DNA from: Paracoccaceae bacterium
Lineage (GTDB): Bacteria; Pseudomonadota; Alphaproteobacteria; Rhodobacterales; Rhodobacteraceae
Assembly: GCA_003511785.1 (NCBI GenBank)
Contig: DOIS01000154.1
Span: forward strand, 1-36,279
Length of the DNA stretch: 36,279 bases
Reading direction: 5' to 3'
This document shows positions 16,155-36,279 of this stretch, in pieces. Made by a program: the position numbers and the translations under genes. The notes beneath the pieces are model-generated. The model was not told where the DNA came from, did no database searches, and saw only the letters and a program-made list of their open reading frames with translations. The first letter of the stretch is position 1. Every line of letters begins with the position of its first letter.

Positions 16155-16163
16155 TTATCCACA
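16155..16163 (+). promoter_or_regulatory. Perfect DnaA-box 9-mer TTATCCACA upstream of dnaB
   Basis: Exact match to the E. coli-type consensus, about 63 nt upstream of the dnaB start. Confidence 0.45.
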
Positions 16164-26392: not shown

Positions 26393-27034
26393 ATGACCGA
26401 GACCAAGATCGCCCTCATCACCGGCGCCTCGCGCGGCCTGGGCTTTGCCCTGGCCGAGGCGCTCAGCGCCACCCATCACGTCGTGGCCGTGGCTCGCACC
26501 ACCGGCGCGCTCGAAGAGCTGGACGACCGGATCAAGGCCAAGGGCGGCAGCGCCACGCTGGCGCCGATGGACATCACCGTGACCGACGCCATGGCCACGC
26601 TTTGCCGGGGCATCCACGACCGCTGGGGCAAGGTCGATCTCTGGGCGCATACCGCGATCCATGCCGCACCGCTGGCGCCGGCCAATTTCATCGACGCCAA
26701 GGACTGGGGCAAGTCGGTGGCGATCAACGCCAACGCGGTCTCGGTGCTGATCCCCTTCGTGGCGCCGCTGCTGGGCAGCGAGGGGCGCGCGCTGTTCTTC
26801 GACGACCCGCGCGCCGGGCAGAAGTTCTTCGGCGCCTATGGGGCGACCAAGGCCGCGCAGATGGCGTTGGCGCGCAGCTGGGCGGAAGAGACCCGCAAGA
26901 CCGGACCGCGCGTCGAGATCATGGAGCCGCGCCCGATGCGCGGCGCCACCCGCGCGTGCTTCTTCCCCGGCGAACACCGCGACGAACTGGCCGGCCCGCA
27001 TGACGAGGCCGCGCGCCTGCTGGCGTTGCTCTAG
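26393..27034 (+). CDS. Short-chain dehydrogenase/reductase (SDR) family oxidoreductase
   Basis: TGASRGLG cofactor motif and YGATKAA (YxxxK catalytic motif). Confidence 0.85.
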   Translation: MTETKIALITGASRGLGFALAEALSATHHVVAVARTTGALEELDDRIKAKGGSATLAPMDITVTDAMATLCRGIHDRWGKVDLWAHTAIHAAPLAPANFIDAKDWGKSVAINANAVSVLIPFVAPLLGSEGRALFFDDPRAGQKFFGAYGATKAAQMALARSWAEETRKTGPRVEIMEPRPMRGATRACFFPGEHRDELAGPHDEAARLLALL

Positions 27035-28206
27035 CGCGCGCCCAGCCCCGCCGCCCAGGCCCCGGCCTCGCCGCCCAGCAGGCGGCTGTGCTCTTGCAGC
27101 GCGAAACGGTCGGTCATCCCGGCGATATAGTCCGAGACGATCCGCGCCAGCGCGGTCTCGTCCTTTGCTGCGGCGACATCGGCCTGCCAGCGCCGGGGCA
27201 GCAGCTCGGGGTTGGCCAGGAAATGCGGGAACAGCTCCTCGACCACGCGGGCGACCTGGGCGCGCATCTCCATCACCGGGGCGGCGCGATACATCCGCCG
27301 GAACAGGAAGGTGCGGATCTCGCGCAGGTCGGACCAGACCGCGTCGGAAAAGCGGATCACCGGCTGGCCCAGATGGCGCAGCGCGGCCGCATCCTCCGGG
27401 GCCGCCGCCTCCAGCGCCGCGCGGCTTTCGTCGATCACGTCGCCCACCATCACGCCGAAGACCCGGCGCAGCGCCTCGTGCCGGCGGCGGTCGGGGTCGA
27501 GCCCCGGGTATCGGCGGTCCACGTCCCGGTAGGCCGGGCCGACGATGGGCAGGGTCGCGATCTCGTCATCGCTGAACAGCCCCGCCCGCAGCCCGTCATG
27601 CAGGTCGTGATTGTTGTAGGCGATGTCGTCCGACAGCGCCGCCACCTGCGCCTCGGCGCTGGCGTGGGTGTGCAGTTCCAGGTCGAAGGCCGCGTTGCAC
27701 TCGGCCAGCGCCCAAGGCAACGGTCCGACGACCGGACCGTTATGCTTGGCGATGCCCTCCAGGCTCTCCCAGGTCAGGTTCAGACCGTCGAACTCGGCAT
27801 AGTGCCGTTCCAGGTGGGTGACGATGCGAATGGCCTGGGCGTTGTGGTCGAACCCGCCATAGGGCGCCATCAGCGCGTGCAGCGCGTCCTCGCCGGTATG
27901 GCCGAAGGGCGTGTGGCCCAGATCGTGGGCCAGCGCCACCGCCTCGGTCAACTCGGTGTTCAGCCCCAGCGCGCCGGCGATCGTGCGCGCCACCTGCGCC
28001 ACCTCGATGGAATGGGTCAGGCGGGTGCGGAAATAATCGCCCTCGTGCTCGACGAAGACCTGGGTCTTGTGCTTGAGTCGGCGAAAGGCGCTGGCATGGA
28101 TGATCCGGTCGCGGTCGCGCTGGAAACACGAGCGGAAGCTGCTGTCCTCCTCGGCCACCAGCCGGCTGCGGCTGGCGCCCGGGTCCGAAGCATATGGGGC
28201 GCGCAT
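27031..28206 (-). CDS. dgt: Deoxyguanosinetriphosphate triphosphohydrolase-like HD-domain protein
   Basis: FQRDRDRIIHASAFRRLKHKTQVF, RLTHSIEVAQV and HDLGHTPFGH, the dGTPase/HD signature. Confidence 0.9.
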   Translation of the reverse strand: MRAPYASDPGASRSRLVAEEDSSFRSCFQRDRDRIIHASAFRRLKHKTQVFVEHEGDYFRTRLTHSIEVAQVARTIAGALGLNTELTEAVALAHDLGHTPFGHTGEDALHALMAPYGGFDHNAQAIRIVTHLERHYAEFDGLNLTWESLEGIAKHNGPVVGPLPWALAECNAAFDLELHTHASAEAQVAALSDDIAYNNHDLHDGLRAGLFSDDEIATLPIVGPAYRDVDRRYPGLDPDRRRHEALRRVFGVMVGDVIDESRAALEAAAPEDAAALRHLGQPVIRFSDAVWSDLREIRTFLFRRMYRAAPVMEMRAQVARVVEELFPHFLANPELLPRRWQADVAAAKDETALARIVSDYIAGMTDRFALQEHSRLLGGEAGAWAAGLGAR

Positions 28207-28282: not shown

Positions 28283-28609
28283 ATGATGCAACTGCCGCCC
28301 AAAGTCACTGACCGGGCCTTTGCCCGCCTGTCCGAGATCGGCGCCGCAAGCCAAGGACAGGCCCTGCGCGTGGCCGTCGAAGGGGGCGGGTGCTCGGGCT
28401 TCCAATACGAGATCGCGCTCGACACGCCCAAGGAGGACGACCTCGTGCTCGAGGGTCAGGGCCAGAAGGTTGTGGTGGACTCGGTCTCGCTGCCGTTTCT
28501 CGAGAACGCGGTGATCGACTTCTCCGAGGAACTGATCGGCGCGCGGTTCGTGATCGACAATCCCAACGCGTCATCTTCCTGCGGCTGCGGCACGTCCTTC
28601 TCGATGTGA
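28283..28609 (+). CDS. erpA: Iron-sulfur cluster insertion protein (HesB/IscA/ErpA family)
   Basis: GGGCSGFQY and C-terminal SSCGCGTSF motifs; 108 aa. Confidence 0.88.
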   Translation: MMQLPPKVTDRAFARLSEIGAASQGQALRVAVEGGGCSGFQYEIALDTPKEDDLVLEGQGQKVVVDSVSLPFLENAVIDFSEELIGARFVIDNPNASSSCGCGTSFSM

Positions 28610-28643: not shown

Positions 28644-29582
28644 TCAGGCGCGGGTGCGACGCAGGGCCATGAAAGGGAGCGCGGGGGCGGCCTCCTCGTC
28701 CTCCGTCCCGGTGCTGCGCCCGAACTGGTCCCAGAGCAGAACCAGCCCGCTTGAGATCACGATGGTCACACCCAGATAGGTGGCCGCGCCGGGATATTCC
28801 CCGAAGCCCACCGCGCCGATCACCACCATCCAGACGAATTGCAGGTTCATCAGCGGCGTGACCGCATAGGCCGCCAGAAGCCGCAGCGCCACCACCACCA
28901 GCCAGCGCGCCAGGAACAGCAGACCGGCATAGGCCGCGACCCAGCCCAGGTCCGCCAGCGGCATCGGTTTCCACACGAAAGGCAGCGCGCAAGCCATGGT
29001 CAGGCACAACGCCAGGTTGGGATAGAACACCTGCGCCAGCGAATTGTTTTCGACCCGCCCGATATAGCGCGATGCAATCATGGAGAGAGTGCCCGTCACC
29101 GCCGCCGCGAAGGCGAAAAGGTGCCCGATCTGGATCGACCGGATGCCGGCGGGAAACAGGAAGGCGACGCCCACGAACCCCGCCACCAGCGCCAGCCAGG
29201 CCATCGGGCGCACATGCTCGTCCAGGATCAGCCCCGAGAAGATCCCCGCCAGGATCGGGATCATGCCGATGAACAGGAACACCTCGGCAAAGGGGAGATA
29301 GCGAAAGGCGTAGAAAAAGCAGATCGCCGCCATCACCGTGAACAGGCTGCGCAGCGCCATCGCCTTGGGACAGCGCGTTTTCAGCCCCCGGCGCTGGCCC
29401 GGATACCGGTCGGTGAGGGCGGCCAGCGTAAGCACGATCAGCCCCGACAGCGCATAAAGCTGCGGCGCCGCATAGCCGCCTGCGATCAGCTTGGTGATCG
29501 CATCGGCCGAGGAAATGAACACCGTGTAAAGCACGGCCAGCCCCGCGCCCAAGCCCGCCGTGCGAATACCGCTCGTGATCAT
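28644..29582 (-). CDS. EamA/DMT-superfamily transporter, last gene of the repeat-peptide operon
   Basis: 312-aa ORF with about 10 hydrophobic segments in two halves. Its ATG overlaps the stop of the upstream 358-aa gene (ATGA at 29579-29582). Confidence 0.8.
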   Translation of the reverse strand: MITSGIRTAGLGAGLAVLYTVFISSADAITKLIAGGYAAPQLYALSGLIVLTLAALTDRYPGQRRGLKTRCPKAMALRSLFTVMAAICFFYAFRYLPFAEVFLFIGMIPILAGIFSGLILDEHVRPMAWLALVAGFVGVAFLFPAGIRSIQIGHLFAFAAAVTGTLSMIASRYIGRVENNSLAQVFYPNLALCLTMACALPFVWKPMPLADLGWVAAYAGLLFLARWLVVVALRLLAAYAVTPLMNLQFVWMVVIGAVGFGEYPGAATYLGVTIVISSGLVLLWDQFGRSTGTEDEEAAPALPFMALRRTRA

Positions 29583-30655
29583 AGTGCAACCCCCCGCAAC
29601 CCGGTCCGGGCGAAGCCTGCGAAGAAGGCGTCGAAAAGATCGGTGCTTTGTTCCGCTTCGGTCAAAATGTCATTTCCGATTTCACTCAGAGATTGTTTTA
29701 TCACCGTTCTCATCGCCTGCCAATCCCCGCTCCGGTTGTCTTCCATGCGGAACATACACTCGGACATCTCGCGCAGCGGCGCGGCATAGGGATCGGCGCG
29801 GAAGAAGCCCATGCGCTCGGGCGCGGCCTCCTTGACGAAGGCATCGCGCCCCGCCGTGGCCATCAGCCAGTTGCACACGAAATAGTCGTGGTAGTCGTCC
29901 TGGGTCGAGACCTGCGGCCCTGTCTGCACCTGGAAACGATGCGTCTCGCGCTCCAGCCAGCCTTCCCAGATCACCGACGGCTCGGCCCCGGCATAGCGCA
30001 GCGCGATGCAGATCTCGGCCAGGAGGTCGGAATTCTGGTCGAGATAGGCCAGGATCCCCGCGAATTCGAGGCTGCGGATCGCCGCCGGCGACAGGCCCGG
30101 GTCGCGCCGGCCGTATTCGGAAAGGTAGAAGACGATATGGGTCAGCTCATAGGCCGCCTTCTTGTTGGGCATGGCGAAGGTCTCCGAGCGGTCCATGAAC
30201 CCGTGCAGCCGCTCGGTCAGCCCGGTATCCTCGGGCAGCGGATCGACGCCCCGGCGCAACATCAGCCGCCGCGCCTCGGCCCGTTGCAGGTCGCTGAGTT
30301 CCGCATCGGCCAGCCCCTCGCGGGCGATCCAATGCGCCAGCGCCTCACCCTTCGCGCCCGGCATCCCCAGATCCTCGAGGTCGAGGCAGATCGACAGCAG
30401 GAAGCGGTAGTATTGCGGGAAGAAGCCCAGGCGTTTCTCGATCTGGGCATAGAACCCCTCATGCACCGACAGCGCGCCATCGTCGAGCGCCAGCCCGGTG
30501 CATTCCAGGATGTTGAGCAGTTCGGCATTCTCCTTGAGCCAGAACACGTCGTCGCCGAAGCGGCGGGACTGCGCGAAACTGGCCATCAGGGCCGCGCGCC
30601 GGGCCGGGTGGCCCAGGCGGTGGGACGGAACGTTCAGATGAATGACATTCGACAT
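29579..30655 (-). CDS. Uncharacterised 358-aa cytoplasmic protein; candidate maturation enzyme for the adjacent SSCS-repeat peptide
   Basis: Intact ORF with high GC3 and an AAGGG SD. It starts 67 nt downstream of the repeat-peptide stop. No signal peptide or TM segment. His/Asp/Glu-containing patches SVHEGFY, AYELTHIVFYLSEYG and DDYHDYFVCNW are present. I recognised no family. Confidence 0.7.
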   Translation of the reverse strand: MSNVIHLNVPSHRLGHPARRAALMASFAQSRRFGDDVFWLKENAELLNILECTGLALDDGALSVHEGFYAQIEKRLGFFPQYYRFLLSICLDLEDLGMPGAKGEALAHWIAREGLADAELSDLQRAEARRLMLRRGVDPLPEDTGLTERLHGFMDRSETFAMPNKKAAYELTHIVFYLSEYGRRDPGLSPAAIRSLEFAGILAYLDQNSDLLAEICIALRYAGAEPSVIWEGWLERETHRFQVQTGPQVSTQDDYHDYFVCNWLMATAGRDAFVKEAAPERMGFFRADPYAAPLREMSECMFRMEDNRSGDWQAMRTVIKQSLSEIGNDILTEAEQSTDLFDAFFAGFARTGLRGVAL

Positions 30656-30722
30656 GGGTGTGCCCTTTCAAATGGCGCCTTCTGAACGCCCCGTATCCAA
30701 CTTCAGCCGCGAGAGGGCCGGA

Positions 30723-31388
30723 TCAGCTGCACGAGCTGACCATCTGGGTGCCGTCGCCCTTCAGGATCGCCTGGCCCGAGGGGGTCGAGCAGGACGACAC
30801 CATCTGCACGCCCTCGCCGGTGGCCGCGTCGCTTCCGCCGGTGACCGAGCAGGACGAGAACAGCTCGACCGAGCAGGACGAGAACATTTCGGTCGCCTCA
30901 CCGCTGGCGGTGGCGGTGCCGGCCGGGGTCGAGCAGGAGGACACCATGTGCACGCCGTCGCCCGTGGCCGCGTCGCCGCCCCCGGTGACCGAGCATGAGG
31001 AGAACAGCTCGACCGAGCAGGACGAGAACATCTCGGTCGCCTCGCCCGCCGTCGTGGCGGTCCCGGCCGGGGTCGAGCAGGACGAGAACATCTGCACCAG
31101 CTCGCCGCGCATCGCCGTGGTCTCCCGCGAGGGCGTCGAACAGGACGAGAACATCTCGACCCCGCCGCCGGTCATGCCATCGGCACCCGCCGTGGTCGAG
31201 CAGGAGGAGAACAGTTCCACCGAGCAGGACGAGAACATCTCGGACGCGTCGCCTGAATGAGCATCGAACAGGGCCTGGGGCTGCGAGCAGGAGGAAAACA
31301 TGGCCGTGCCCTCGCCGTCGAACAGGCTGGCGGCGCCGTTGCTGGTGGCGGTTGCGGCGATGTCGTAAACTTTGCGTTGAGCGTTCAT
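30723..31388 (-). CDS. Repeat peptide with 12 copies of [M/L][F/V]SSCS; candidate multi-core precursor peptide
   Basis: ATG at 31388 with a GGGAAAG SD 6 nt upstream; 221 aa. A 29-aa Cys-free N-terminal region is followed by 6 MFSSCS, 3 LFSSCS and 3 MVSSCS copies. Spacers are VE (3 times) or 14-15 aa rich in G/T/A/D/E (8 times). The stop follows the last copy directly. The motif is kept across different Ser codon families (TCN versus AGC). Confidence 0.75.
   Translation of the reverse strand: MNAQRKVYDIAATATSNGAASLFDGEGTAMFSSCSQPQALFDAHSGDASEMFSSCSVELFSSCSTTAGADGMTGGGVEMFSSCSTPSRETTAMRGELVQMFSSCSTPAGTATTAGEATEMFSSCSVELFSSCSVTGGGDAATGDGVHMVSSCSTPAGTATASGEATEMFSSCSVELFSSCSVTGGSDAATGEGVQMVSSCSTPSGQAILKGDGTQMVSSCS
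30726..31301 (-). repeat. Array of twelve 18-nt coding repeats (mostly atgttctcgtcctgctcg)
   Basis: Read directly in the sequence. On the plus strand it appears as cgagcaggacgagaacat. Confidence 0.9.
30789..31076 (-). repeat. Two tandem 144-bp (48-aa) higher-order units inside the repeat-peptide gene
   Basis: TPAGTATTAGEATEMFSSCSVELFSSCSVTGGGDAATGDGVHMVSSCS versus TPAGTATASGEATEMFSSCSVELFSSCSVTGGSDAATGEGVQMVSSCS. A third, more diverged 49-aa unit lies upstream. Confidence 0.85.
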
Positions 31389-31466
31389 GGCAGTCTTTCC
31401 CGTTGTGAAGTTGATCGCCCCATCACGCTTGCACCCATAAGATGAGTTGCAAAGATTTTTTTCGTG

Positions 31467-31481
31467 TTAAGGGGGTATTAA
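31467..31481. promoter_or_regulatory. Perfect TTAA-N7-TTAA (CtrA-type) motif upstream of the repeat-peptide operon
   Basis: ttaa-gggggta-ttaa, centred about 86 nt upstream of the ATG at 31388, in an AT-richer 353-bp intergenic region. Confidence 0.45.
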
Positions 31482-31488
31482 TGGGTAG

Positions 31489-31497
31489 TTATCCACA
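31489..31497 (+). promoter_or_regulatory. Perfect DnaA-box 9-mer TTATCCACA
   Basis: Exact consensus, 7 nt from the TTAA-N7-TTAA motif. Confidence 0.45.
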
Positions 31498-31564: not shown

Positions 31565-31573
31565 TTATCCACA
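31565..31573 (+). promoter_or_regulatory. Perfect DnaA-box 9-mer TTATCCACA (second copy, same orientation)
   Basis: Exact consensus, 76 nt from the first copy and preceded by an A8 tract. Confidence 0.45.
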
Positions 31574-31741: not shown

Positions 31742-32521
31742 ATGAAAATCGCCAGTTTCAACATCAACGGCATCAAGGCCCGCGCCCAGGCGCTGACCGA
31801 CTGGCTGGCCGAGGCGCAGCCCGACGTGGCGCTGCTGCAAGAGATCAAGTCGGTGGACGAAAACTTCCCCCGCGAGATCTTCGAGGACATGGGCTACAAC
31901 GTGGAAACCCACGGGCAGAAGGGGTTCAACGGGGTGGCGATCCTGTCAAAACTGCCGCTCGAGGATGTGCGCCGCGGCCTGCCCGGCGACGCCGACGACA
32001 CCCAGGCGCGCTGGATCGAGGCCACGGTGGTGGGCGATCGCGCGCTCCGGCTCTGCGGGCTCTACCTGCCCAATGGCAACCCGGTGCCGGGGCCGAAATA
32101 CGACTACAAGCTCGCCTGGATGGAGCGCCTGCGCGCCCGTGCCGCCGATCTGCTGGCGGCCGAGGAGCCCGCGCTGATGGCGGGCGACTACAACGTGATC
32201 CCGCAGCCCGAGGACGCCAAGCACCCCGAGAAATGGACGAAGGACGCGCTGTTCCTGCCCGACAGCCGCGCCGCCTTCCAGCGCATCGTCAATCTCGGCT
32301 TCACCGACGCCTTCCGCGCCCGTGTGCAGGGGCCGGGGCATTACACCTTCTGGGATTACCAGGCCGGGTCGTGGAACCGCAATAACGGCATCCGCATCGA
32401 CCATTTCCTGCTCACGCCGCAATGCGCCGACCTGCTGGTGGATGTGGGCATCGACGCCGAGATCCGGGGCCGAGAGAAACCCTCAGATCACGTCCCCATC
32501 TGGGTCGAACTGGACATCTAG
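31742..32521 (+). CDS. xthA: Exodeoxyribonuclease III
   Basis: MKIASFNINGI, LLQEIK and C-terminal SDHVPIWVELD motifs of the ExoIII/APE family; 259 aa. Confidence 0.93.
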   Translation: MKIASFNINGIKARAQALTDWLAEAQPDVALLQEIKSVDENFPREIFEDMGYNVETHGQKGFNGVAILSKLPLEDVRRGLPGDADDTQARWIEATVVGDRALRLCGLYLPNGNPVPGPKYDYKLAWMERLRARAADLLAAEEPALMAGDYNVIPQPEDAKHPEKWTKDALFLPDSRAAFQRIVNLGFTDAFRARVQGPGHYTFWDYQAGSWNRNNGIRIDHFLLTPQCADLLVDVGIDAEIRGREKPSDHVPIWVELDI

Positions 32522-32581: not shown

Positions 32582-32878
32582 TTACAACCCGCCACACCCC
32601 GCCGTCCGCCGCACCAGCGCCGCCAACACCGTCTCGAAACAGGCGCAATAGTCCAGGTCGTCGAAGCCCGGCTCGGGCGGCAAGGCCCGCTTGCGCGCCG
32701 CCCCCATGAGCGAGCCGTTGCCCCAGAGCGGATGCGGCCGCCCGGTGCGGTCCATGTGCCGATGCGCGGCCTCTGCCTCCGCCAGCATCCGCGCGCAGAG
32801 CCTCTCGCGCTGGTCCGGAGCGGCGCGCAGCAACACCCGCGCCGCGCTGCTCACGTCGCCATACAGCAGCCGCCGCAT
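32582..32878 (-). CDS. Small hypothetical protein (98 aa) translationally coupled to the GTA orfg15-like gene
   Basis: Its ATG overlaps the upstream stop (TGATG at 32876-32880). High GC3. Sequence begins MRRLLYGDVSSAARVLLRAAPDQRERL. No family recognised. Confidence 0.55.
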   Translation of the reverse strand: MRRLLYGDVSSAARVLLRAAPDQRERLCARMLAEAEAAHRHMDRTGRPHPLWGNGSLMGAARKRALPPEPGFDDLDYCACFETVLAALVRRTAGCGGL

Positions 32879-35800
32879 CACGCGCCCGCAGGCCAGTCGA
32901 GCCGCGCGAAAGGCCCCGGCCCATAGCGCGCCGAGACCTGCGCCACCTCGATCACGCAGCCCGGGCCCGCCCCGTCGCCCCCCTGCGCGCCCGCGCCATA
33001 GCTCCATTCCGGCGCCTCCACGTAGGCCTCGCGCAGCACCCGCGCCCCCTCGCGCACCCGCACCAGATAGCGTTCGCGCTCCTCGCCCAGCGGCACCTCG
33101 TCCAGATCCCAGCTGTCCCCGTCGATCCGCGTGCGCCGGACCCAGCTCAGCGCCAGGTCGCCGCCCTGATCCTGCGCGCGCAGGTGACAGGGCGCATAGG
33201 GGCGCAGCCCGTTGCCGTCGAAGGCCGCCACCAGATGCGTATAGGATGGATCGCTCACCGCCCTCCGCGCCGGGCCGATCCGGTAGTGCCGCGCCACCCG
33301 CCGCTGCGCCGGGCTCAGCCCGATCTGCTCCGGCACCCCGTCGAGCAGGACGAAGAACGACCCCTCCGGCCAGACCGGCGGCATGATCCCGTCGCTGCCC
33401 GCCTGCCCGCGCAGGCGCTCCGAGATCAGGTAGGTATCGGGCGCCACCAGTTCCGCCTGCCGGAATTGGATCAGCTCCCAGTTGCCCGGGCTGCCGTCGC
33501 CCACGGCGGCCAGGTTGGCCCCGTTCAGCACCGCCGCGCGCGGCCGACTCTCCAACGCCCCCGACAGCATCCGCACCTGCACCGGCCCGCCCGCGTCCCA
33601 GCGCCCCGCCGGGGCGGCGGCCAACGGCGTCTCAAGCACCCCGACCGTCGCCCGCGCCGCGATCACCTCGGTCAGAGCATAATCCGAATCCGTGTTCGAT
33701 CCGTAAACAGCCACCGATCCGGGCCAGGGCGTGCCCGTCACCGCCAGGTGCGGCGCGTGCGCCACCTCGTCCCCGCGCATCAACGGCAGGTCCAGGAACA
33801 ACGGCAGCACCGGCACCGGCGCAGCGAAGGCACGCGGGCTGGGCGCGTCCTCGGGCCCCTCCGAGGGCACATAGACCGCCGGTTCGATCCGCACCGCCTC
33901 GACCAGTTGCAGATCGGCCTGGTCCACCCGGTCGATGCGATAGCGCGTCTCGCCCCCCTCGCCCGGCAGCGCCACAACGTCGCCCGCGCCCAGCCCCATC
34001 GCCGAGGGCGGCAGGGCAAAGCGCGCCGTGTCGCGCGCCACCCGCGCCTCGGTCAGCCAGCGTTCGGCCACCGCGCGCCCCTCGCCCCGGCTCAGCGCCA
34101 GGGGCAACTCGCTGGTGGCCACCGCGTGGGTGGCATCCGAGGCCAGCACCGCCTCCTCGGCCACCGCCGCGTGATCGGCCTCCGCCTCGACGAAGCGCAG
34201 CCGTACCCGCCCCGAGCTTTCCGCCTCCGCCGCGCGCGACCGCTCCACGCGCCCCTCGGTCTCGCCCGAGACCGCCAGGCAGTCCGGGTCCAGCCGCACC
34301 GTCCCGCGCCCGTCGCGCGGGACGAAGCGCAACAACCCGTCGCGCTCCACCGCGTCGAAGCCATGCGCCAGCATCAGGGGCTGCAACGCCGCGCGCGCCT
34401 CGGCCACGTCTTCGACCGCATAGCCGCGCACCACCCCCGTCAACGCGCCGGTGTCGATCGCCTCCACGCCCGCCCGGCGGCAGATCTCGCCCACCACCGA
34501 GGCCAGCGCCCGCGTCCCCGTGCGCCCGTTGATCCAGTGACCGCGCGCGAAATTGGCCCCGTCGCTCCACAGGCCGCGATTGTTGGGAAACCACGGAAAC
34601 GGCCGCGCGTCCCAGGCCCAGACATAGGCGTTCTCCATGTCCACCATCGGCCCCTCGTAGACATCCGAGACCGGGTTGCGACCCGGGTCCCGCCAATAAC
34701 TCAGCATCACCTCCAGGTAACGCCGCTGGATCAGGTCGTCGCGCCGCCCGGTGGAATAGCGCGGCAGGGCCGATTCCGAGGATTTGGCGTCGAGGAACTT
34801 GTTGGGCTGGTTGGTGCCCTTGTCCACGGCGGCACAACCCAGCTCGGTGAACCAGATCGGTTTCGAGCGCGGCTCCCAGGCCGTCGGCACCGCCTGCCGC
34901 ACCCCGTCGATGCGCTCGTGATGGCGGTTCTCCCACCAGCCGCGCAGGTCCTTGAACCGCCAGACCCAGGGCTCGCCGTGCTCTCCGTCGGTGATCGGTT
35001 CGCGCCGCTGGACCGCCCGCGCCTCTCCACTGGGGTAATACCAATCGAACCCCTCGCCACCCTCGATATTGGCGGCGAGATAGGCGGGATCGTGGATCGC
35101 ACCCCAACCGGCATCCGCGTGGTCCTCCCCCTCGCGCCAATCCGACAGCGGCATGTAATTGTCGATCCCCACGAAGTCGATCTCGTCATCCGCCCAGAGC
35201 GGATCGAGATGGAAAAACCGGTCCCCCGGCACATCCACCGGCTGATAGCCGAAATACTCGCTCCAGTCGGCGGCATAGCCGATCTTCACATCCGGCCCCA
35301 GAAGTGCGCGCACCTCGCCCGCCAGCGCCCGCAACGCCTCGACCGCCGGGAACCCCGCCACCCCCCGGATCTGCGTGAGCCCCCGCATCTCGGAGCCGAT
35401 ACAGAAGGAGTCCACGCCCCCCGCAGCCGCGCAGAGCGCCGCGTAATGCAGGATGAAGCGCCGCATCCCCCATTCATTCGGCCCGTGGTAGCTCACCACC
35501 CCGTCGCCCACGGTGAAATCCGCTGCCCGCGCGGTGCCGAAAAACGCCGCCACCTGCGTGGCGGCCTCATCCGTGCCGTCGGGCGTGCCTGCGACCCCGG
35601 GCGCGAGCGAAGTGGTGATCCGCCCCCGCCAGGGCAGCGCCGGCTGGCCCGCCTCGCCGGTCCAGGGGTTCACCAACCCGTTGCCCGCCATCTGGTCCAT
35701 CAGGATGAAGGGATAGAACATCACCCGCTTGCCCGCCGCCGCCATGTGCCGGATCGCCTCGACCACCGCCGCGTCGGCCGGCGTGCCGCCATAGATCGGC

Positions 35801-36279
35801 CGCCCGTCCGCGTCCTCCTCGATCTGGTCGGCGCCCGCCCGCGTCAGCCCCGCGACCGACCAGGGCATGTTGGACCCTTCCACATCGTGCTTTTCCATCT
35901 TGGGCACCAGCAGGCACTGCCCGCAGCGCAGATCGCCCCCGAACCACGACACCACCAGCGAGACCGCCTCGCAGGACGGCAACTCCCCCTCCAGCGCCTC
36001 GAAGGAGGTGACGAAATCGCTCTTGCCCGAGGGCGAATTGACATTGGCCGCCCAGCGGCTGCCGACCCCGTCAGTGAGGTAAACCGGCGTCGTGGCCAGG
36101 CTGTATTCGCCGGTGCCGGGCATCAACGCCACGCCGCGCACCGCCTGGGCCAGGTCGTGCGCATGATCCGGCGCGCCGGGCTGGGCCGCGCGCACCACCT
36201 CGAAGGAGAATTGCGGCACCCGGTTGCCATAGGGTTCCAGCGACAGGGTCTCCATCACCACATAGGCCGTGCCGCGATA
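32878..36279 (-). CDS. GTA (gene transfer agent) host-specificity/tail protein, orfg15-like; N-terminus lies outside the window
   Basis: The frame is open to the window edge (..YRGTAYVVMETLSLEPYGNRVPQFSFEVVR..). GNRVPQFxFEV, followed by a TIM-barrel-like region and a long C-terminal tail domain, is characteristic of the about 1300-aa last gene of RcGTA-type clusters. Confidence 0.8.
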   Translation of the reverse strand, partial: YRGTAYVVMETLSLEPYGNRVPQFSFEVVRAAQPGAPDHAHDLAQAVRGVALMPGTGEYSLATTPVYLTDGVGSRWAANVNSPSGKSDFVTSFEALEGELPSCEAVSLVVSWFGGDLRCGQCLLVPKMEKHDVEGSNMPWSVAGLTRAGADQIEEDADGRPIYGGTPADAAVVEAIRHMAAAGKRVMFYPFILMDQMAGNGLVNPWTGEAGQPALPWRGRITTSLAPGVAGTPDGTDEAATQVAAFFGTARAADFTVGDGVVSYHGPNEWGMRRFILHYAALCAAAGGVDSFCIGSEMRGLTQIRGVAGFPAVEALRALAGEVRALLGPDVKIGYAADWSEYFGYQPVDVPGDRFFHLDPLWADDEIDFVGIDNYMPLSDWREGEDHADAGWGAIHDPAYLAANIEGGEGFDWYYPSGEARAVQRREPITDGEHGEPWVWRFKDLRGWWENRHHERIDGVRQAVPTAWEPRSKPIWFTELGCAAVDKGTNQPNKFLDAKSSESALPRYSTGRRDDLIQRRYLEVMLSYWRDPGRNPVSDVYEGPMVDMENAYVWAWDARPFPWFPNNRGLWSDGANFARGHWINGRTGTRALASVVGEICRRAGVEAIDTGALTGVVRGYAVEDVAEARAALQPLMLAHGFDAVERDGLLRFVPRDGRGTVRLDPDCLAVSGETEGRVERSRAAEAESSGRVRLRFVEAEADHAAVAEEAVLASDATHAVATSELPLALSRGEGRAVAERWLTEARVARDTARFALPPSAMGLGAGDVVALPGEGGETRYRIDRVDQADLQLVEAVRIEPAVYVPSEGPEDAPSPRAFAAPVPVLPLFLDLPLMRGDEVAHAPHLAVTGTPWPGSVAVYGSNTDSDYALTEVIAARATVGVLETPLAAAPAGRWDAGGPVQVRMLSGALESRPRAAVLNGANLAAVGDGSPGNWELIQFRQAELVAPDTYLISERLRGQAGSDGIMPPVWPEGSFFVLLDGVPEQIGLSPAQRRVARHYRIGPARRAVSDPSYTHLVAAFDGNGLRPYAPCHLRAQDQGGDLALSWVRRTRIDGDSWDLDEVPLGEERERYLVRVREGARVLREAYVEAPEWSYGAGAQGGDGAGPGCVIEVAQVSARYGPGPFARLDWPAGA

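Follow-up and report, generated by a model that had tools for sequence, protein, structure and literature searches.

The 36,279-nt stretch analysed here (contig DOIS01000154.1, assembly GCA_003511785.1; the whole of it is called the window) carries a cassette of three minus-strand genes that run in the same direction and encode, in order, a protein of short tandem repeats, a 358-aa protein and a permease of the EamA/DMT type. Comparison with related loci from other genomes and metagenomes (designated by L-numbers) provides strong evidence that this is a real, widespread and unstudied module, and we give about an even chance to the reading that it is a self-contained, new precursor-enzyme(-exporter) pathway for a peptide-derived product, similar to those of peptides that are made by ribosomes and modified after translation (RiPPs). 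The three genes are as follows.

30723..31388, minus strand: repeat protein gene, 221 aa, candidate multi-core precursor
29579..30655, minus strand: DUF6902 protein gene, 358 aa, candidate peptide-modifying enzyme
28644..29582, minus strand: EamA/DMT permease gene, 312 aa, 10 transmembrane (TM) segments, candidate exporter

A sequence-only reading of positions 28644-30655 had proposed such a unit of precursor, enzyme and exporter; that span covers the enzyme and exporter genes, whereas the repeat gene lies outside it. The spacing that it described is as we found it: the TGA of the repeat gene (30725-30723) and the ATG of the 358-aa open reading frame (ORF; 30655-30653) leave a gap of 67 nt, and the 358-aa ORF ends within the same ATGA (29582-29579) in which the EamA ORF begins. 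A 4-nt stop/start overlap of the form [AGT]TGA recurs in about 62 of the 70 loci of our first set. The neighbourhood analysis of homologs that the same reading had proposed placed an ORF with at least two motif copies 36-130 nt upstream of the DUF6902 gene in 81 of 82 genome loci with upstream DNA, the exception being a decayed copy, and among 80 further loci from metagenomes, a motif ORF was present in every one with at least 300 nt of upstream sequence (two of these ORFs were missed by the search pattern and confirmed by eye). Because the same order is found in about 160 independent loci and the 4-nt overlap recurs, the arrangement is far beyond chance; the raw co-occurrence counts are inflated by vertical descent in shared synteny, the order in most loci being xth on one side, then precursor, DUF6902 and (EamA), then hesB and dgt. 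The unit is thus conserved, co-directional and tightly spaced as had been claimed, although its exporter is not universal: EamA directly follows DUF6902 in 95 of 138 loci with enough downstream DNA, and in the loci without it a HesB-like gene takes this place. Since the permease is absent from part of the loci, we take the precursor with DUF6902 as the core of the module, to which the permease is often added as an accessory with tight coupling.

A relative of the enzyme was found in at least 579 species in a scan of one genome per species, and all named carriers belong to the Roseobacter group (Sedimentitalea, Phaeobacter, Ruegeria, Shimia, Roseovarius, Seohaeicola and others). Two loci that depart from the usual arrangement are informative. 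In L092, a 45-aa ORF with a single core (MKSNLKVATTTTRETAAKTAQVKARPVVDMLTGEGTGLFISTSES), ending in ...GEGTGLFISTSES and the stop codon, precedes a 37%-identical DUF6902 gene and an EamA gene with the 4-nt overlap, and the cassette lies between TetR/homogentisate-pathway genes and FAD-oxidase genes; judged by its sequence, the 45-aa ORF looks like a classical leader-plus-core precursor in a neighbourhood unrelated to the usual synteny. Conversely, L085 (4673-6005, Donghicola sp. XS_ASV15) is a syntenic locus without repeat gene and EamA, and its DUF6902 copy, in which all motifs common to the whole family are lost (among them LKENAE, FPQYYR, YELTH, DLLAE and DDYH), looks like a decaying gene.

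The repeat protein and its motif

The 221-aa repeat protein is acidic (22 D+E versus 5 K+R) and consists of an N-terminal leader of about 29 aa (MNAQRKVYDIA...SLFDGEGTA) followed by 12 copies of [ML][FV]SSCS, each within a unit of 8 or about 20-21 aa, with the last motif copy forming the C-terminus. Across homologous repeat ORFs the leader is kept as MxAQxK ... LxDG, and the core pattern is G-[DE]-x-[TV]-x followed by [ML]-F-[ST]-[S/T/C]-[small]-[S/L/A/M], in 1-16 copies per protein. The consensus of 637 units reads G at position -5 (90%), [DE], [GA], [TV], [EQ], M/L, F (95%), T/S, S (91%; otherwise C or T), G (86%) and S/L, then A-P, and 13 residues are conserved around each core; the units are 21 aa (360 cases), 20 aa (128) or 8 aa (61) long. 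In 74 of 82 repeat proteins, the stop codon directly follows motif position 6. With its start, leader, flanks and stop at the motif all conserved, the gene has the form of a coding precursor with leader and core(s) beside a candidate modifying enzyme, in agreement with the earlier suggestion that the upstream ORF is a ribosomal precursor.

The repeat protein family matches no Pfam or NCBIfam model, and databases list only 23 of its proteins, all "hypothetical"; gene finders mostly overlook the gene or place it on the opposite strand. Its reading frame was assigned from protein conservation across species and from serine codon classes rather than from GC content at third codon positions (GC3), since wobble positions shared between the strands prevent GC3 from separating the repeat gene from an antisense ORF. 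Both TCN and AGY codons are used at the conserved Ser positions, which indicates that selection acts on the repeat-gene frame. The antisense ORF over the repeat gene of the window (30658..31260, plus strand, 200 aa) shares wobble positions with it and was rejected as a real gene, being a high-GC (GC3) artefact. A long antisense ORF with the same wobble sharing covers the repeat gene of L084 (4393-4719, minus strand). In at least one public record, the gene has been called on the wrong strand.

The motif itself changes between relatives but hardly at all within a protein. At positions 3-6 we found 18 variants among 82 genome loci, and about 40 when metagenomes are included (for example SSGS, TSGS, TSGL, TSSL/M/I, TTSL, TTSC, TCGL, CSAS, PSGS, ISGS, ICCS and TSWS), whereas the copies within a protein are 99.7% uniform at these positions. 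The sequence-only reading had emphasised the cysteine of an E-MFSSCS core; this emphasis does not survive the comparison, because the Cys in SSCS is lineage-specific and Gly is usual at motif position 5. The closest relative of the window enzyme (92% identity) is preceded by MFSSGS x10, and a relative at 87% identity by MFCSGS. Changes between relatives are concerted across all copies: in L003 and L006, the flanks of the repeat genes are about 93% identical, and yet all copies in L003 have a Ser codon (TCN) at motif position 3 where all those in L006 have a Thr codon (ACN). In the window, the Cys codon is TGC or TGT in all 12 copies, including the last, which has not simply been homogenised with the others, as its Ser codons are AGC. 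The combination of uniform copies within a protein and rapid change between lineages implies that something requires all copies to be alike and allows or favours change from lineage to lineage. Metagenomes also hold unusual variants, namely [FY]ICCS, in which two Cys stand side by side, FTSWS, which has a Trp as residue 5 of the motif, and MMCAS, which lacks the near-invariant Phe, located in the upstream ORFs of L136 and L156, in L139/L170 and in L160; these show the extent of possible core drift.

The DUF6902 protein and the permease

The 358-aa protein, which the sequence-only reading could not assign to any family, is a member of Pfam DUF6902 (PF21843; E 3.6e-171, 569 bits against a cutoff of 27, residues 1-351 on profile positions 1-351 of 351). 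It also matches DUF6895 (PF21836; E 1.3e-23, 84.3 bits against a cutoff of 23.8, residues 28-229), but this match covers only profile positions 19-233 of 289 and is far weaker, so that by sequence the protein is best taken as a relative of DUF6895 rather than a member proper. NCBIfam and PADLOC gave no match for it. As predicted, it has no signal peptide or TM segment, with no 19-residue Kyte-Doolittle window above 1.22. The superfamily is small (179 clusters at 50% identity with E<=1e-3 among 1.8 billion representatives), and all distant members tested still match DUF6902. The only functional lead for relatives of DUF6902 is the title of one paper, according to which a protein of the DUF6895 family epimerises a lasso peptide (Shi et al., ACS Catal. 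2026, 16:1757; referenced by PMC13352647 and PMC13453073). Our literature search found no paper on DUF6902, the motif or a Roseobacter repeat precursor.

An AlphaFold2 model of the protein (predicted local distance difference test score 82.9, predicted template modelling score 0.83) is confident and, apart from one tiny hairpin, consists of helices, about 19 in number. Foldseek found no match to it in PDB or BFVD at E<=0.001; the best PDB match (E 0.16, template modelling scores of 0.2-0.3) was to solenoids of the importin/TPR/ARM type, and a PDB sequence-profile search with the DUF6902 alignment returned no solved relative, only noise (NUG1, E 1). Conserved across the family are K41, E45, P80, R84, D122, R149, H173, G182, D210, E214, W230 and H256, a set that looks like an active site. 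The proposal of an all-helical, oxidase-type fold with metal ligands fared poorly. The di-metal or heme-oxygenase-like site for which a Foldseek search of an AlphaFold model had been suggested found no structural counterpart, and the YELTH and DDYH patches are not kept as such in distant members; only H173 and H256 of these patches are kept, and conservation there does not extend to E170 and D253, the residues needed for full ExxH/DxxH motifs. A di-iron oxidase fold of the heme-oxygenase-like or ferritin-like kind thus finds no support.

Members of a distant clade of DUF6902 (about 30% identity) lie directly after a small protein gene in five of five places (six loci, of which L081 and L082 are one place), and a DUF6902 gene beside a small protein gene is a recurring theme across the family. 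The places form a second DUF6902 module, found in five unrelated neighbourhoods, in which a protein of about 540 aa is followed by one of 85-94 aa and then by DUF6902. The larger protein has no Pfam match and shows an N-terminal winged-helix-like region, one TM segment and a helical C-terminal part; the smaller one has a signal-peptide-like N-terminus and a conserved C-terminus (FYxGDF...DLYxGxGGAEVPxxR).

Second DUF6902 module: L081/L082 2937-6044; L083 3018-6062; L086 2902-6083; L087 2935-5987; L088 854-3862

The permease belongs to the EamA/DMT group, as had been read from its sequence: it has two Pfam EamA stretches (PF00892, E 6.9e-14) and 10 hydrophobic segments. Its scores against named NCBIfam transporters are below threshold (2A78, 39 bits, cutoff 230; YddG, 32 bits, cutoff 300), and a search against PDB sequences gave no match. 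Two of its residues vary with the last residue of the motif.

EamA residue 85 (third hydrophobic segment): A or S in 67/67 loci where the last motif residue is S, A, C or G; G in 23/27 where it is L, M or I
EamA residue 156 (sixth hydrophobic segment): F or W in 57/67 loci where the last motif residue is small; V, I, L or A in 26/27 where it is L, M or I

The symmetric uncertainty between EamA columns and the last motif residue reached 0.68, 0.51 and 0.50, as compared to at most 0.31 for columns of xth, dgt and hesB and at most 0.34 for DUF6902. On a tree of flanking proteins, a bulky last residue is found in about three separate lineages (Shimia, a Roseovarius-like lineage and the TTSL group). 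The pattern is suggestive of size complementarity between residues 85 and 156 and the last residue of the motif, and by this co-variation, the transported species would still contain motif position 6. The sole notable signal in DUF6902 was the occurrence of N48G, N262G and E51A with a Ser-to-Thr change at motif position 4, essentially in one clade.

Regulatory elements and neighbouring genes

The regions before and within the cassette contain the following elements.

31405..31434, minus strand: conserved promoter-like block GTGCAAGCG-N7-GCGATCAAC-TTCAC, from an alignment of 71 upstream regions
31489-31497 and 31565-31573, minus strand: two perfect DnaA boxes TGTGGATAA, 76 bp apart in the same orientation
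30674..30706, minus strand: conserved intergenic element between the repeat gene and the DUF6902 gene, from an alignment of 74 loci and individual folds

The promoter-like block lies about 20-45 nt upstream of the ATG of the repeat gene and may represent an alphaproteobacterial -35/-10 promoter. A scan of the region in the window gave no sigma-70 promoter consensus of the E. coli type and no canonical terminator, and an Rfam scan of the region found no family. The pair of DnaA boxes sits in the intergenic region between the divergent xth and repeat genes. The window holds three perfect boxes against none expected, the third being at 16155-16163 (minus strand); 82 of 130 syntenic loci have at least one perfect box and 41 of 130 have two at 75-77 bp spacing, and boxes are absent from the non-syntenic L092 cassette. 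An oriC at this site was rejected, as the GC skew keeps its sign there; the boxes may instead serve DnaA-dependent regulation or titrate DnaA. A perfect CtrA-type site, TTAA-N7-TTAAC (31466-31481, minus strand), upstream of the repeat gene was also rejected as a regulatory feature, being present in only 1 of 70 loci, and probably reflects chance or is lineage-specific.

The intergenic element consists of the block CTGAAGTTGGATACGG, a hairpin GGCGTTC-loop-GGCGCC and then ATTTGAAAGGG (Shine-Dalgarno, 30663-30669). Some compensatory changes occur in the hairpin (e.g., GACGT/ACGTC in L017); RNAalifold gave no consensus structure for it, and its minimum free energy z-scores were not significant. 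From its sequence and position, we infer only that the element could be a leaky terminator, a processing site or a translational control element. In the block CTGAAGTTGGAnACGG at 30674-30706, CTGAA could pair with TTCAG inside the 5' arm of the hairpin, and through this pairing alternative structures of the element may be possible.

The genes that flank the cassette in the window are ordinary ones and are listed below.

31742-32521, plus strand: exonuclease III (xth)
28283-28609, plus strand: HesB/IscA-like protein
27031-28206, minus strand: HD-domain dGTPase-like protein (dgt)
32878-36261, minus strand: gene transfer agent (GTA) tail gene g15 (tail/host-specificity; GTA_TIM, Phage-tail_3 and Rcc01698_C domains), which here adjoins xth

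A tblastn search with the g15 protein found no match in the 6-kb upstream flank of 80 related genome loci, and the junction of the xth region with the GTA cluster appears to be specific to the genome of the window.

A candidate peptide pathway and its alternatives

In the pathway to which we give about an even chance, the repeat protein would be the precursor, with an N-terminal leader and 1-16 identical cores. The cytoplasmic DUF6902 protein would recognise what is invariant in each unit (flank, Phe, and Ser/Thr/Cys of position 4) and modify each core at or near its Phe-x-Ser/Thr/Cys; by analogy with DUF6895, C-alpha epimerisation or some other proton abstraction would be the likeliest chemistry, although we rate the chances that it resembles epimerisation as low. 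Since no protease is encoded, general peptidases would trim the variable linkers, or DUF6902 would itself cut after motif position 6; the C-terminus of the product would correspond to position 6, where nearly all repeat proteins end. Where present, the EamA/DMT permease would export a small product that retains the C-terminal residues of the motif, as the co-variation suggests. The gene order, its coupling, its conservation, the uniformity of the copies and the co-variation are the observed steps of this scheme. The fast turnover of the motif, in all copies at once, between close relatives would fit, speculatively, a molecule that carries specificity, for instance a signal or an antagonist. 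A broader version of the scheme, a tentative possibility and no better than that, is a Roseobacter-wide minimal pathway with a tandem-core precursor, a single enzyme of unsolved fold and DMT export through a pocket that co-evolves with the last residue of the core, the product being a short peptide or a small molecule derived from one. With its roughly 40 motif variants, it would act in these abundant marine Gram-negative bacteria as a signal or antagonist that diversifies in the manner of a pherotype and is perhaps tied to replication state by DnaA boxes.

The cassette resembles several known systems in part. Like DUF6895, the window protein is cytoplasmic, lacks a recognisable cofactor motif and is encoded beside a ribosomal peptide gene, and the two are significantly related in sequence; unlike in DUF6895, its C-terminal third lies outside the match, and it scores better against DUF6902. 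The context also differs from that of lasso peptides, as neither the window nor about 170 loci contain genes for a lasso cyclase, a leader peptidase or a RiPP recognition element (RRE), and a linear repeat protein would here take the place of the lasso peptide as substrate. The precursors of multi-core RiPPs (cyanobactin PatE, multi-core microviridins, and fungal dikaritins and ustiloxins with their Kex2-processed repeats; e.g., PMC5934393, PMC7329392) share the many short cores, conserved recognition flanks, variable spacers and a core copy number that differs between strains. In contrast to these systems, the window cassette has no PatA/PatG proteases, ATP-grasp ligases or DUF3328/UstYa oxidases, its cores are almost perfectly uniform within a protein, its exporter is a DMT permease rather than an ABC or MFS transporter, and it is a vertically inherited core-genome feature.

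Pyrroloquinoline quinone (PQQ, from PqqA), pantocin A (from PaaP) and mycofactocin are small diffusible products made from a short ribosomal peptide stretch by compact gene sets, and for such a product a small-molecule-type transporter would fit. Their cores are present in single copy and are processed by radical SAM or other known enzymes, and we found no homology of the window proteins to their components. The permease shares two EamA repeats and 10 TM segments with exporters of the YddG and RhtA type, but it is only weakly similar to the named NCBIfam transporters and has no named orthologue. Pfam and NCBIfam scans of the three proteins found no protease, YcaO, LanB/C/M, radical SAM, MNIO, ATP-grasp, P450 or RRE, in agreement with what had been read from the sequence for proteases, radical SAM, YcaO, LanC and MNIO; scanning the three genes and their region with NCBIfam, PADLOC and Rfam yielded nothing of use. 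As every class-defining enzyme looked for is absent, the cassette is a member of no known RiPP class.

Several points weigh against a RiPP-like pathway. Neither a product nor a transcript nor any processing has been observed; the cassette lacks a protease, an RRE domain and any known RiPP enzyme, and the function of DUF6895 rests on the title of one paper. The exporter gene is absent from 43 of 138 loci, and its co-variation with the motif derives from about three independent lineages. The usual substrates of DMT permeases are small metabolites. There is no convincing co-variation between DUF6902 and the motif, the signal being no better than in the flanking-gene controls apart from one clade-specific event, and the weak structural neighbours of DUF6902 are helical-repeat binding proteins, which would also fit a non-catalytic role. 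Finally, genes of secondary metabolism are not usually inherited as this cassette is, mostly vertically and within a core neighbourhood that is conserved.

An alternative, which we consider unlikely, is that the repeat protein is not processed at all. It would then be an acidic, disordered protein with multivalent motifs, on each of which DUF6902 would dock as a helical binder, chaperone or regulator, with EamA an accessory or functionally separate neighbour and the DnaA boxes tying expression to replication status. The likeness of the DUF6902 model to importin, TPR and ARM binders, weak as it is, would suit such a role, as would the fixed length and disordered composition of the repeat units, the absence of an exporter from 31% of loci and the inheritance of the pair as a vertical core-genome feature with conserved DnaA boxes. 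However, the single-core, 45-aa version in L092 has no multivalency, and an unprocessed protein would not account for a C-terminus exactly at the motif in 74 of 82 proteins, for the conserved exporter overlap or for exporter residues that co-vary with the last residue of the motif; the roughly 12 near-invariant polar residues of DUF6902, including two His, are typical of an active site, and the related family DUF6895 is, by the title cited above, reported as an enzyme. Quite unlikely, in our view, is that DUF6902 is instead an endopeptidase or cyclase of new fold, cutting after position 6 and possibly before the core to release unmodified or cyclised short peptides. Such an enzyme would make up for the lack of another protease in the cassette, the last core would need no C-terminal cut because the proteins end at position 6, and the flanks on both sides (G at -5, 90%; AP at +1/+2) are conserved as cleavage recognition sites would be; on the other hand, we found no likeness to any peptidase family or fold, there is no Ser or Cys nucleophile that all members share (some have V, G or I in place of C216), and the one function reported in the related family, again by title, is epimerisation.

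The idea that a metal-dependent oxidase (di-iron or heme-oxygenase-like) tailors Cys or Ser in an E-MFSSCS core has in its favour the ExxH-like YELTH and DxxH-like DDYH of the window protein and the invariance of H65, H173 and H256 in close relatives. It has become very improbable, as the position-5 Cys occurs in the window lineage only, with Gly at this position in 86% of 637 units, distant members do not keep E170 and D253, and a confident model has no ferritin-like or heme-oxygenase-like structural match. The notion that the genes are unrelated neighbours held together by the synteny of the Roseobacter group alone seems to us just as hard to sustain: xth, the hesB/iscA-like gene and dgt are equally syntenic in most loci, but all three genes stay together in the non-syntenic L092, conservation extends to the 4-nt overlap, the co-variation of EamA with the motif is far above that of the flanking-gene controls, and DUF6902 has decayed where its partner genes are missing (L085).

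Few groups of marine heterotrophs are as abundant or as well studied as the Roseobacter group, and this cassette is present in at least 579 species, yet it is annotated no further than a DUF number. If the proposed RiPP-like pathway is correct, the cassette would represent a new RiPP-like class with one enzyme of unsolved fold and chemistry, and DUF6902 would gain a substrate hypothesis that is directly testable with synthetic peptides. The pairing of A85/F156 with small last residues and of G85/V156 with bulky ones would offer a natural specificity series for a DMT transporter, and the product would be a peptide-derived molecule, specific to the strain, that matters in the interactions of bacteria with one another or with algae.

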